DNA from: a virus
Taxonomy: Duplodnaviria; Caudoviricetes
IMG/VR virus record: IMGVR_UViG_3300021399_000159
Location: 2,753 to 66,752 of that record
Strand: one strand, 5' to 3'
Length of the DNA: 64,000 nt
The notes beneath the pieces were generated by a model. That model searched no databases. It was not told where the DNA came from and worked only from the letters and a program-made list of their open reading frames with translations. Below, piece after piece: positions 6,959 through 55,650 of this stretch (its first letter is position 1; each line of letters begins with the position of its first letter). Both the position numbers and the translations under genes were made by a program.

Positions 6959-7210
6959 CCGATCGGCCGGCCGCCGATTGTATACAGTATTCTTCTAATT
7001 TTATACTTGACACCCTATATAATTTCTGCTATAATATAATTGTTCCGAGGGGAACAGACCTCAAACGAAGGCGCCAAATGTTTGAGGGAGTTCCCCAAGG
7101 AAAAAGTTTGAAAAAAGTTTTGAAAAAGACTTGACAAACATCAAAACCTATGATATACTAATCACGAACAAAGGGAAGGACACCCTATAAACCAGAAAGG
7201 AATGACCACT

Positions 7211-7549
7211 ATGAAGAAAGCCACCATGAACACCATCCTGTCCCTCATCGCTACCATCGACACTCCCGAAGCCGAAGCGGTTCGTGCGGAATTGAACGCC
7301 GAACTGGCTAAGGGTGCGGAAAAAGCGCAGGCTAATCGTGACCTGTACGCTTCCGCCCACGATGCGGTTATCTCGGCTCTGGCAGATGCTTCTGCCCCTG
7401 TGACCATGTCCGAACTGTGGGAAGCAGTTGAGGACAATATGCCCGAAGGCATGACCAAGGGCAAGATGCAGTATGCGGTGACTCGCCTGTGGACTGACGA
7501 GATCGTCAAGACCGAAGGCAAGGTCAATGCCTACTCTCTGAAGGCGTAA
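7211..7549 (+). CDS. Winged-helix DNA-binding protein, paralog 2
   Basis: TMSELWEAV...TKGKMQYAVTRLWTDEIVKTEGKVNAY; shared leader. Confidence 0.75.
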   Translation: MKKATMNTILSLIATIDTPEAEAVRAELNAELAKGAEKAQANRDLYASAHDAVISALADASAPVTMSELWEAVEDNMPEGMTKGKMQYAVTRLWTDEIVKTEGKVNAYSLKA

Positions 7550-9304: not shown

Positions 9305-9531
9305 GCTAACTCCGCCGGCCGCGAATTGTATACAGTATTCTTCAAAATAAATGCTTGACTTCTGATAAAATTTCTGATATACTATATATGTCAGGTGAGG
9401 GGAAGAGGTTCTCCGAGGGCGAAAAAAACTTTGAAAAAAAGTTTGAAAAACCCTTGACAGCCATCCTAAAATCTGATATAATAAATACGAAAATAGGAAG
9501 GACACCTCACAAACCAGAAAGGGTTACCACT

Positions 9532-9858
9532 ATGAAGAAACTGTCTCTCGTTGCTATCAAGAACGCTCTGGTTGGATTCGGTTATGCGGACGAAGCTATC
9601 CTTGCCGAACTGGACAAGGAAATCACCAAGGGTGAAGCGCAGAAAGCAAAGAACGCCGAAGCCTACGATGCCATCCATGACATCGTAATGGGTGCTCTGA
9701 CTTCCGCTCCTGCGACTGTCGCCGAGATTTGGGATGCGATCGAGGATGAAGTCCCCGAAGGCATCACCAAGGGTAAGGTTCAGTACGCTCTGACCCACCT
9801 CTGGAGCGATGAAATCGTCAAGGTTGAGGGCAAGCCGAATGGCTATCGGAGGGCGTAA
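9532..9858 (+). CDS. Winged-helix DNA-binding protein, paralog 4
   Basis: TVAEIWDAI...TKGKVQYALTHLWSDEIVKVEGKPNGY; shared leader. Confidence 0.75.
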   Translation: MKKLSLVAIKNALVGFGYADEAILAELDKEITKGEAQKAKNAEAYDAIHDIVMGALTSAPATVAEIWDAIEDEVPEGITKGKVQYALTHLWSDEIVKVEGKPNGYRRA

Positions 9859-9986
9859 GCCCTCCACCTCGCAGAAGTCCTTTGGCAGTATGCCCAGTTC
9901 TGCATTATCAAAAGCGAGAAACTGCCCACCACGAGGGTTTCCGAGGGTCTTTCAGTGTGGTTAAACAACATAAGCCCTCTTTTTAT

Positions 9987-10100
9987 GGGAAGCGTCAGTG
10001 GCATCAGGGAAGCCACCGAGGTAAACCCAAAAGGTGATCTCGCAGTGGGACAGTTGCAAAAATGGGGCCCACAGGAGTTCAATTCTCCCGCTTTCCACCA
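9987..10100 (+). ncRNA. tRNA-like RNA (114 nt) with Ala identity elements, non-canonical anticodon arm
   Basis: Acceptor GGGAAGCG/CGCTTTCC (G3.U70), discriminator A, encoded CCA, T-arm GGAG-TTCAATT-CTCC, three internal stems. Confidence 0.65.
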
Positions 10101-10306
10101 ACATTACCTTATATCCTTTCCTTCCTTCCTTCGCCCACCGCTTGCGGTGGGCTTCTCTTTTATTGCACATTGTATACAGGATACGGCGGCCGGCCGCAAA
10201 TTTGTACATACAACAATGTATACAAATAAAATTTAAAATAATGCTTGACAAATCCCAAAACATAGATTATAATATATATGAAATCAGAAAGGAAAGGTGA
10301 TTTAAG

Positions 10307-22524: not shown

Positions 22525-23229
22525 ATGACCTTATTAGAAAAATTTTTATAGAAAATTCAAGTCATTAAAGTACTTAAACCTAAATATAGATAGCCCGGTG
22601 ATGGCTCAGATGGTACTTGTGATTGCGTCGGTTTAATTATCGGCGCATTTCGTCGTGCTGGGATAAAATGGTCTGGTATTCATGGTAGCAATTGGTTCGC
22701 GCGCAAAGAAACTACTGGCTTAAAACGTATTGAAAGTCAATCTGAACTTAAACTTGGTGACGTTGTATATCAAGCCTACGAACCTGGCGAAAAAGGTTAT
22801 GCACTCCCAGGCAGATATAGAAAGGGCGGGAAATATTATAATGGCGATGTGCGCGATTACATGCATATTGGAGTTGTAACAAGTGTAAATCCATTTAATA
22901 TTACTCATATGGGTTTACCTACTGTTAAAGTAGATAAATCCATAGGAAGATATTGGAAGTATAAGGGATGGCTTACCAAACTTGGAAAAGAGCCATCTGA
23001 AGAATTGCCGCCACAAACACCAGTAGCACAATGTAAGGCGCGAGTAACCGCAAAATCTGGTAGATATGTTAAAATGCGTAAAGAACCTTCTACTAAATGT
23101 AGGTTATATGAAGAGATACCAATTGGCGCGATAATTACCATTGAAGAGCCAGGTGACGAATGGGCAAAAGTTAGCTATGGTAGATATACAAATTATTACA
23201 TGATGGCGCAATTTTTAGAAATTATATAA
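22525..23229 (+). CDS. NlpC/P60-like cell-wall hydrolase with SH3b domain (234 aa; 2 TAG=Gln)
   Basis: GTCDCVGLI catalytic Cys, MHIG His, C-terminal VKMRKEPS...WAKVSY SH3b; both TAGs lie before the catalytic Cys. Confidence 0.8.
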
Positions 23230-54040: not shown

Positions 54041-55650
54041 GTGGATATATTGGTAAGGTAAAAATAGGAAGCGACTTAGCCTTAATAGGCTCAACTCTTT
54101 ATGGTATTTGTAATAGTGCCGCTGATGCCGCGGTAAAAACTGTAACCACTGTTGATAATAATAGTGGAAAATTTATAAATAATAATTTTGACGAGCCAAT
54201 ACAAGGTACTACTATCCATGTTAAATTTGTAAATGGTAATACTGTAGAAAGTGGACTATCATTGGCTGTAGGAAGCGTTATTGCTAAAGATATTGTTGGC
54301 GCATGTAAATGTAGCGCTGGCGCGATTATTAGTTTCACTTTGGATGAAAATGAGCACTGGGTAGTAAATGATAGTACTGAGTTTGTATTTAAAACTCCAT
54401 ATAATCCAACAACAAATAGAATACTAACTGAAAGCGATATCGGCCCGGCCGCGCTAAAGGACGTAGATACAGCTATTACATTAAATAGTAATAGTTAGAA
54501 TTTACCAACAACTGCTGCGGTAGCTACGTTTGTTTAGGAGCAAACAGGTGGCTTATCTGGATTAACTGGAGCAATGCACTTCCGCGGAGAAGTTGCTAGT
54601 GAGCCTACAAATGACGCAGCTAGTTTTGCTGATTATATTAGCGGCGATGTCGTATTATACGGTGCGAAAGAATATGTTTATGTTAAAGGTAACACAGCCG
54701 CAGATTCTCAATGGATTGAGTTAGGTGACGAAGGGTCTTGGGCCTTAGATAACGCTGTAATTCACAATAGCTTATTAACCGCTAAAGGCGATATGATTTT
54801 TGGCGCTGAAAGCGGTTCAAATATAATTCCTGCACGATTACCAATAGGTACAGGAAATAATAAGTTTCTAACTGTTAGCGGCGGAATTCCTGCTTGGGGA
54901 GCTATCAGTAAATCCGACGTTGACTTGGATAATGTTACAAATGAGGCGCAAATTCCTAAATCAGTAGGTACTGCCGCTGGTGATATTATCTATTATAATG
55001 GTAGTACATTTGTTAAACTAGGTATTGGTACATCAGGACAGGTTCTAAAAGTTAATGGTACTGGTAATGCGCCATACTGGACCGCTGATGATAATAGTGA
55101 TACTAAAGTTGCTTAGACAGGCATTACAACCGCAGGCGAGTACTCCATTCTATTAAAGAATACTACTAGTGTTGATGATGAAACTAATGGAGTTAATTTT
55201 GGTAAAACAACTGGAAAATTGGTAACTATTAATCCTTCTACTGGTATCATTACCGCCGCAGGATTCAGTGGTGATGGTAGTAGTTTAACAAATGTAGTAG
55301 CAAGTTCAGTAGAATGGGCAAACGTTACTAATAAAGTTACGGCTGCATTAAATACATTAGGTATTGTTAAAACAACTTCTACTGTATCAGATGCAACAGA
55401 TTATACCGCATCTCCAATTATAGACGGAGTAGTTTATTATTAGGACACTGATACTCATTATAAATCCACTGGTTCTGCTAATGCAGTAACTAGTATTAAT
55501 TTAACATATACAACAACCACTGCATAGAGTGATACAATTTCTGCCACCGCAACAGCAATAGGTATGGTAGACCATGGAATTTTATATATTAAATCTATTT
55601 CTTAGAGTACTACTGCAGTAAGCACTGGAGTAAGCATTGATAATACATAA
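54037..55650 (+). CDS. Tail fibre protein (537 aa; TAG=Gln)
   Basis: Three tracked ORFs in frame; shares TINPSTG.IT segment with the 19846 gene. Confidence 0.75.

Follow-up and report, generated by a model that had tools for sequence, protein, structure and literature searches.

A conserved tRNA-like RNA with alanine identity features in a group of TAG-recoded ruminant-gut phages

A tRNA-shaped element in the early region of the window

The window analysed here is a whole 64-kb stretch of DNA from a 66.7-kb phage fragment (IMG/VR record IMGVR_UViG_3300021399_000159) with an estimated completeness of 36%, and the region is found in sequencing runs of bovine, sheep, rumen and other animal gut metagenomes. 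Its first 14 kb comprise small early cassettes in which no read-through of TAG is needed; from ~20 kb onward, reading TAG as sense restores the late genes and opens a frame of ~3,100 codons. Positions 9987-10100 (+) hold an element that we take, with a probability of roughly 0.55, to be the gene of a stable small RNA shaped like a transfer RNA (tRNA) in a group of TAG-recoded ruminant-gut phages. The original prediction, made from the letters of the sequence, proposed an acceptor stem with G3.U70, A73 and CCA, a T arm and internal stems at this site, and all of these were confirmed in the window sequence at the following positions.

9987-10100 (+): RNA element, 114 nucleotides (nt), with an 8/4 acceptor/T stack, a D arm, two internal hairpins, a T arm and an A-CCA end
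9987-9994 (+): 5' strand of the acceptor stem, GGGAAGCG, 8 nt beginning G1 G2 G3, assigned from sequence, fold and alignment
9998-10016 (+): D arm, 5-bp stem GUGGC/GCCAC and 9-nt loop AUCAGGGAA with a G18-G19-like GG
10017-10042 (+): arm 2, in the anticodon-arm position, with 6 bp, an invariant UAA/GA internal loop, 3 bp and a capping loop
10045-10072 (+): arm 3, in the position of a long variable arm, with stem GUGGG/CCCAC around a tip containing UGCAAA
10074-10088 (+): T arm, 4-bp stem GGAG/CUCC and T loop UUCAAUU
10089-10096 (+): 3' strand of the acceptor stem, CGCTTTCC, paired with 9987-9994; U70 at 10094 forms G3.U70
10097 (+): discriminator A73, followed by the encoded CCA (10098-10100) at the 3' end of the element

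The minimum free energy fold of the element is this cloverleaf (-42.6 kcal/mol, z = -2.9), with none of 200 shuffled sequences equally stable, and the cloverleaf persists when it is folded within a 326-nt precursor. Elbow features are present in the form of the GG in the D loop and a T loop of the UUCRAnn type. Arm 2 (CGAGGT/ATCTCG, with inner ACC-CAAAA-GGT in the window) directly adjoins the D stem with zero linker, as an anticodon stem does. The lack of both a decoding loop and a tag, also part of the original prediction, was upheld: in the fold of the window copy, no 5-bp stem bearing a 7-nt anticodon loop stacks on the D stem, ARAGORN detects no frame for a tag, and none of the frames read from the GCA has a stop before the 3' end of the element.

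Neither of the standard searches called a canonical tRNA or a transfer-messenger RNA (tmRNA). ARAGORN returned no tRNA or tmRNA in the whole window, and Rfam gave no match at the gathering score, the element falling below the thresholds of the tRNA model (29 bits) and the tmRNA model (47 bits); the best sub-threshold Rfam match was to tRNA-Sec (RF01852), with 18 bits against a cut-off of 47. A BLAST comparison with 50,697 phage records gave only a chance match to the T arm, and searches of published papers found no description of this RNA family. Standard tRNA and tmRNA finders and Rfam miss a conserved class of phage RNA, members of which are located inside tRNA arrays.

Homologues and covariation

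Fourteen distinct homologous copies, including that of the window, were found by pattern scans of IMG/VR and of JGI/ENA metagenomes, by covariance models R1 and R2, and in the full records of related phages, which were located via a 550-aa protein. They score 87-132 bits, come without exception from phage or ruminant-gut metagenome contigs, and occur once per genome; no copies turned up among 185,579 prokaryotic species genomes, which were scanned with the pattern and then with model R2. (Loci are designated below by L numbers and phage genomes by G numbers.) There are two subtypes, the window type of 105-114 nt with a single arm 3, and a 112-119-nt type (L265, L266, L285, L286 and L288) in which the same region forms two hairpins.

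In the 14-row alignment 96.8% of structure cells pair and 14 of the 31 pairs change on both sides; none of 500 shuffles reach the observed values, and partners slid by 1-3 columns pair at 42-55%. The structure is far beyond chance, and the element is a conserved structured RNA. The G2:C71 and G3:U70 pairs, A73 and the encoded CCA are invariant in 14/14 copies and G1:C72 is present in 13, while acceptor pairs 4, 5 and 7 covary, a pattern that bears out the proposal of a tRNA mimic with alanine identity. The sole departure in the first three acceptor pairs is a U1.C72 in the nearest relative of the window copy (L186 2842-2955, +), which may be a real variant or an assembly error.

The D stem is 100% paired, with four of its five pairs covarying. 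Position 8 (G8:C) pairs in every copy, and the 8/4 reading of the acceptor/T stack is preferred because a 7/5 stack would need an A.C or U.C as its fifth T-stem pair; pair 8 never varies, so the 8/4 split is without covariation proof. The D loop keeps its GG and the T loop its UUCAAnU throughout, so that a tRNA elbow should form.

The sequences of arms 2 and 3 are conserved beyond the needs of pairing. The string GGUAAAYC...GRUGAU of arm 2 is nearly invariant, and the change of its pair 40:48 from C:G to U:A in five copies shows that the helix is real. In 12 copies arm 2 is capped by a GNRA tetraloop (GAAA or GCAA), and the other two, the window copy and its nearest relative, have CAAAA; this 1-nt indel (CAAAA versus GAAA) distinguishes close relatives and rules out the mechanically called open reading frames (ORFs) that overlap the element. 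The internal loop of arm 2 presumably resembles the UAA/GAN motif. The tip of arm 3 carries UGCAAA in 14/14 copies, and in most of them it fits a GCAA (GNRA) tetraloop closed by a U:A pair best.

Expression signals and genomic setting

The element is placed and flanked in the manner of a tRNA gene, and the surrounding signals, listed here in genome order, suggest that it is expressed.

9454-9482 (+): sigma-70-type consensus promoter, TTGACA-17-TATAAT with TG, 12/12 matches
9532-9858 (+): gene of ~108 aa, DUF6958-like (Pfam DUF6958, 20.9 bits, sub-threshold), with a winged-helix C-terminal half
9848-9865 (+): hairpin GGAGGGC-GTAA-GCCCTCC, identified from the sequence, with the TAA stop of the upstream gene in its loop
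9928-9986 (+): 5' leader, with a hairpin GAGGG...CCCTC, a U run, and UAU right before the mature 5' end
10101-10162 (+): CU-rich 3' trailer and intrinsic terminator (stem 10133-10152, then a U tract)

Between 9454-9482 and the element there is no further consensus promoter. The leader is near-identical in L001, L186, L148 and a contig from an RNA library despite differing flanks, and positions -3 to -1 read UAU in 12/14 copies and CAU in the other two (L285 and L286), with U conserved at -1. In a metatranscriptome contig (run X16, record 7; compare window 9928-9992) the conserved leader stands before yet another variant of the element, one whose D stem is ACCAC/GUGGU, and the diversity of the family thus exceeds the 14 aligned copies. 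Equivalent terminators follow the element in L001, L186, L041, L265, L285, L286 and L288, and similar CU-rich trailers follow it in L001 and L186. The trailer of the window, CCUUUCCUUCCUUCCUUC, together with its terminator weakly resembles the mmgR/suhB family of small RNAs (sRNAs; 15.6 bits against a cut-off of 41), and from its sequence could be a 3'-spacer-derived sRNA with an anti-Shine-Dalgarno-like motif.

An AlphaFold2 (AF2) model of the upstream protein has a helical N-terminal part and a winged helix (predicted local distance difference test, pLDDT, 87.8), and its only fold matches are generic winged helices with E > 0.06. Eight of the 14 copies have a member of the same DUF6958-like gene family in front of them, and the ninth, L285, is preceded by an ORF truncated at the contig end; a stop-codon hairpin likewise stands 5-7 nt before the element in L041, L265, L285, L286 and L288. 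L186 has no DUF6958-like gene upstream of its element. The remaining four copies (L033 of G002, L159, L179 and L190) lie in phage tRNA arrays, two of them behind a TTGAAT...TATAAT promoter, and the distance to the next tRNA is 1-8 nt in L033 and L159. In G002 the element sits in mid-array between tRNA-Thr and tRNA-Tyr, with the DUF6958-like gene 55 kb away, which shows that the link to this gene is frequent and not obligatory. The early region of the window has two paralogous DUF6958-like winged-helix genes (7202-7549 and 9532-9858), and the RNA follows the second only.

tRNAs, tmRNAs and recoding in related phages

Other RNAs of these phages occupy several of the roles that might be assigned to the element. 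Genome G001 has 23 separate tRNA genes including an 89-nt tRNA(CUA) and a tRNA-Ala(UGC), and the complete, TAG-recoded 182.7-kb genome G002 has 24, again with tRNA(CUA) and tRNA-Ala(UGC); neither has a tRNA-Cys. Bona fide tmRNAs are present at L179 1449-1815 (-) and L190 1102-1441 (-), with Rfam scores of 86 and 103 bits, inside tRNA arrays and 0.3-1.5 kb from the element; that of L190 encodes the tag AANKRNDNYDYLPAVA. No tmRNA was found in the complete G002. Since the relatives carry a separate tRNA(CUA), a separate tRNA-Ala(UGC) and, on two contigs, a tmRNA, the element is not a suppressor, not a tRNA-Ala and not a tmRNA.

The original prediction had also suggested that the element might be relevant to a recoded phage; a specific link with recoding is not supported. 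Not only do relatives have their own tRNA(CUA), but the related phage G006 (IMGVR_UViG_3300028833_000067), which is 98% complete and TAG-recoded, with a 5,240-codon frame that opens only if TAG is read through, has no copy of the element; recoding therefore does not depend on it. ARAGORN gives only 13 tRNAs in G006 and no tRNA(CUA), and its suppressor is thus off the contig or non-canonical. The amber suppressor tRNAs(CUA) at L014 3076-3164 (G001 23076-23164) and G002 55157-55242 measure 86-89 nt and have the long variable arm of class II, a form suggesting that TAG may not mean glutamine in these phages. In the same array of G002 as the element, ARAGORN also calls a tRNA at 64854-64925 whose 'anticodon' is an undetermined pair of bases; this may be a further non-canonical tRNA-like gene.

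Relationship to known RNAs

In the way it would work the element resembles both the tRNA-like domain of tmRNA and the G3:U70 allo-tRNAs, and it is a member of neither. Like the tmRNA domain (RF00023) it has alanine identity and a T arm and would enter translation without an anticodon; unlike tmRNA it has no mRNA-like domain or pseudoknots, it has a D stem, and it fails the Rfam model.

Transfer RNAs with an 8/4 stack are known both from phage tRNA clusters and from rumen Clostridia (Mukai et al. 2017, PMC5389517), and in E. coli 8/4 allo-tRNAs with G3:U70 receive alanine and are used by both EF-Tu and the ribosome (PMC5389517). Like the 8/4 tRNAs, the element has an acceptor branch of 12 bp divided 8/4 and a long extra arm, weakly resembles tRNA-Sec, and occurs in phage tRNA clusters and the rumen. 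Among the 8/4 tRNAs of that paper are some with G3:U70 that accept alanine and some with five-stem junctions that do not translate. Unlike the element, allo-tRNAs have retained an anticodon stem-loop, and their D stem is long and closed by a tetraloop. The element instead has a hairpin with the UAA/GA loop and a GNRA cap at the anticodon-arm site, a 9-nt D loop with GG, and A73.

The T4 RNAs rnaC and rnaD (species 1 and 2) offer a looser parallel, being small stable RNAs without assigned function in a phage tRNA cluster, rnaC with a tRNA-type T arm and paired ends. They differ in having no similarity in sequence or to the model (14 bits), no G3:U70 and no encoded CCA, and homology to them is unsupported by this score.

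Proposed mode of action

AlaRS, the alanyl-tRNA synthetase, recognises G3:U70 and A73 and not the anticodon, and its complete set of identity elements in the acceptor stem is invariant among the copies. We consider it somewhat better than an even bet, judging from sequence features, that the RNA is an RNase P-processed, AlaRS-chargeable, non-decoding tRNA mimic. A precursor ordered as promoter, small gene, leader, RNA and terminator would be cleaved by RNase P right after the conserved UAU (U-1), and host AlaRS would charge the product with alanine by reading G3:U70 and A73. EF-Tu probably binds the 12-bp acceptor/T helix, by analogy with the 8/4 allo-tRNAs. Having no decoding loop, the RNA would have to act independently of codons, and it may work in trans on some factor that reads the upper half of tRNA-Ala or tmRNA, for which it would be a non-decoding competitor or decoy, with the two GNRA-capped hairpins supplying a second specific contact; the leading candidate pathway would be ribosome rescue and quality control. 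This function is proposed by analogy and tentatively, at about one chance in three. It ranks first among the candidates, ahead of, in descending order, a true mini-tmRNA, a missense tRNA with a GCA anticodon, an alanine carrier and a cis-acting 3' module of an mRNA. The role of anticodon-nuclease decoy raised in the original prediction is unlikely for an RNA without an anticodon loop that a nuclease could cut.

Several observations weigh against this interpretation. L179 and L190 carry both the element and a tmRNA of their own, a poor fit with an inhibitor of trans-translation, and the absence of the element from the 98%-complete G006 shows it to be dispensable. No phage gene for SmpB, AlaRS, AlaX or FemAB that would point to a pathway was found; in particular, there is no phage smpB in G000-G003, and the search for partner genes found no tRNA_SAD gene. 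The D stem occupies what we take to be the place of SmpB on tmRNA, which counts against an SmpB sponge. The invariant UGCAAA could be a working anticodon loop. Contigs assembled from four RNA libraries include the neighbouring gene and the leader but not the element, which is evidence neither for nor against its expression.

If the RNA is charged and yet does not decode, these phages would have evolved a use of the alanine system outside normal translation, and the blindness of AlaRS to the anticodon would make alanine the easiest tRNA identity to hijack. The family would then be a compact object for studying how phages tamper with ribosome rescue and with tRNA-directed immunity, and for studying tRNA-dependent aminoacyl transfer.

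Alternative explanations

The alternative that survives best, although we judge it unlikely, is that the element is a true derivative of tmRNA, a tag-less mini-tmRNA that binds SmpB and either blocks trans-translation in the host or adds a single alanine to stalled chains. An alanine acceptor and a T arm without anticodon or tag amount to the definition of the tRNA-like domain (TLD) of tmRNA, and there is a precedent in phage DS6A, whose TLD-only RNA and a similar molecule strongly inhibit tmRNA, perhaps via SmpB titration (PMC4131195). The DS6A gene (JN698994 28478-28560) is phage-encoded like the element and has G3:U70, a T arm, a closed middle hairpin and no anticodon or tag. It differs in its 7/5 stack (8/4 in the element), the lack of a D stem, a single central hairpin, a length of ~83 nt and the lack of an encoded CCA. 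Model R2 gives it 20 bits, mostly from the acceptor and T arm, so that homology is unsupported and the DS6A RNA is better regarded as an analogue. The element itself has no match to the Rfam tmRNA model, and it has a covarying 5-bp D stem with a tRNA-type D loop in place of the tmRNA D-loop motif, which the tmRNAs of L179 and L190 show as GGAUUCGAC and GGUUUCGAC. Complete phage tmRNAs occur alongside the element on these two contigs, and no phage SmpB gene was found. Membership of the tmRNAs, as implied by the mini-tmRNA option of the original prediction, is accordingly not supported.

An improbable alternative is that the RNA decodes after all. Arm 3 (arm 3a in the 118-119-nt subtype) would then be the anticodon arm, with U33-GCA-A37-A38, and arm 2 an additional one inserted after the D arm and before the anticodon arm; UGY (Cys) codons would be read as alanine, making the RNA a natural missense tRNA, or it would be the phage's missing tRNA-Cys. 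The invariance of UGCAAA behind a variable base is as expected of U33, an anticodon and A37-A38, and L265 and L266 allow a drawing in which UUGCAAA is a 7-nt loop on a stem of 4-6 bp and a GNRA hairpin of its own follows where the variable arm would be. This loop presumably matches the anticodon loop of E. coli tRNA-Cys. With arm 2 deleted in silico, relaxed ARAGORN calls a tRNA-Cys(GCA) over the full length of L266, tRNA-Cys is missing from G001 and the complete G002, and missense-decoding allo-tRNAs exist (PMC5389517). Nine of the 14 copies, including the window's, nevertheless have no pair closing a 7-nt loop, the motif lying in a 10-18-nt loop or in a tetraloop hairpin of the form UU-GCAA-AA. 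Default ARAGORN stays blank even with arm 2 deleted, and its relaxed calls are inconsistent (Thr, Pro, Cys, a 4-nt anticodon), on which grounds a hidden canonical tRNA was also rejected. It is arm 2, moreover, and not arm 3 that adjoins the D stem in the manner of an anticodon stem, and A73 instead of U73 counts against cysteinyl-tRNA synthetase (PMC5389517). Decoding is kept as a rival and not as the preferred reading because most copies lack the closing pair and because the tRNA-Cys call needs both the deletion of arm 2 and relaxed settings, and then appears in some copies only.

There is an outside chance that the RNA is a protein-free analogue of tmRNA-SmpB, charged with alanine, delivered by EF-Tu and entering ribosomes with an empty or stalled A site (such as those at UAG codons lying in frame within the recoded late genes), where the rigid, invariant arm 2 would replace SmpB or the codon-anticodon helix and alanine would be donated without codon reading; in a variant, UGY would be read as alanine via UGCAAA.

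A dedicated alanine carrier for non-ribosomal transfer by a host or phage transferase of the Fem, MprF or Mom-type GNAT class, kept off the ribosome by the loss of its anticodon, seems decidedly improbable. It would account for strictly conserved charging determinants in an RNA that has lost the ability to decode, and the phage protein Mom takes Gly-tRNA as aminoacyl donor for DNA modification (PMC13219725). A small GNAT-like gene (~138 aa) lies near the locus in G002 (L247 5726-6139, -), G007 (L266 302-715, +) and L286 (9229-9633, -), at a distance of 0.8-1.4 kb from either the element or the DUF6958-like gene; G006, which lacks the element, does not have it. However, this gene falls below Pfam cut-offs, neither the window nor the examined stretches of G001 yielded it, no FemAB or Acetyltransf_6 gene was found in the four to five genomes searched, and the conservation of arms 2 and 3 would be left unexplained.

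We think it quite improbable as well that the element has a role in cis only, as a 3' module for processing or stabilising the winged-helix gene mRNA in which the RNase P cut sets the 3' end, as with MALAT1/mascRNA, and the released RNA has no function. The copies behind the DUF6958-like gene family stand only 13-128 nt downstream of it, in one transcription unit and with the stop codon in the loop of a hairpin just before the element. Against such a role, four copies are in tRNA arrays, gene and element are 55 kb apart in G002, and recognition by RNase P requires neither G3:U70 nor A73 nor the invariant sequences of arms 2 and 3. A functionless tRNA pseudogene in decay, or the remnant of an attachment site, would explain the rejection by standard tRNA detectors and is very improbable, being contradicted by covariation (14 compensatory pairs, 96.8% pairing and invariant loops among copies that differ at many positions) as well as by the single copy per genome with its own terminator.

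Three more specific ideas were rejected. The motif AGGUGAUC in arm 2 complements the 3' end of 16S rRNA and serves as a ribosome-binding site in this phage, but the element is not a Shine-Dalgarno mimic: five copies switch the pair to AUC/GAU, which destroys the match and keeps the helix. A target for the A-rich loop was sought through its complement TTTTTGCA, which is not enriched in the window (5 found, 6.5 expected). The element is also no intron, the insert being far too short for group I and arm 2 forming no bulge-helix-bulge by inspection.

Gene content and the presence of the element

Contrasting the gene content of G002 and G007, which have the element, with that of G006, which does not, gives a short list that includes a TrmB-like methyltransferase and the GNAT-like ORF, a contrast that rests on one element-less genome and thus on too few for inference. 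The methyltransferase gene, at G002 69766-70557 (+) (L250 9766-10557), lies just beyond the tRNA array and encodes an S-adenosylmethionine (SAM) methyltransferase with a borderline match to TrmB (tRNA m7G46); it is common to G002 and G007 and absent from G006.

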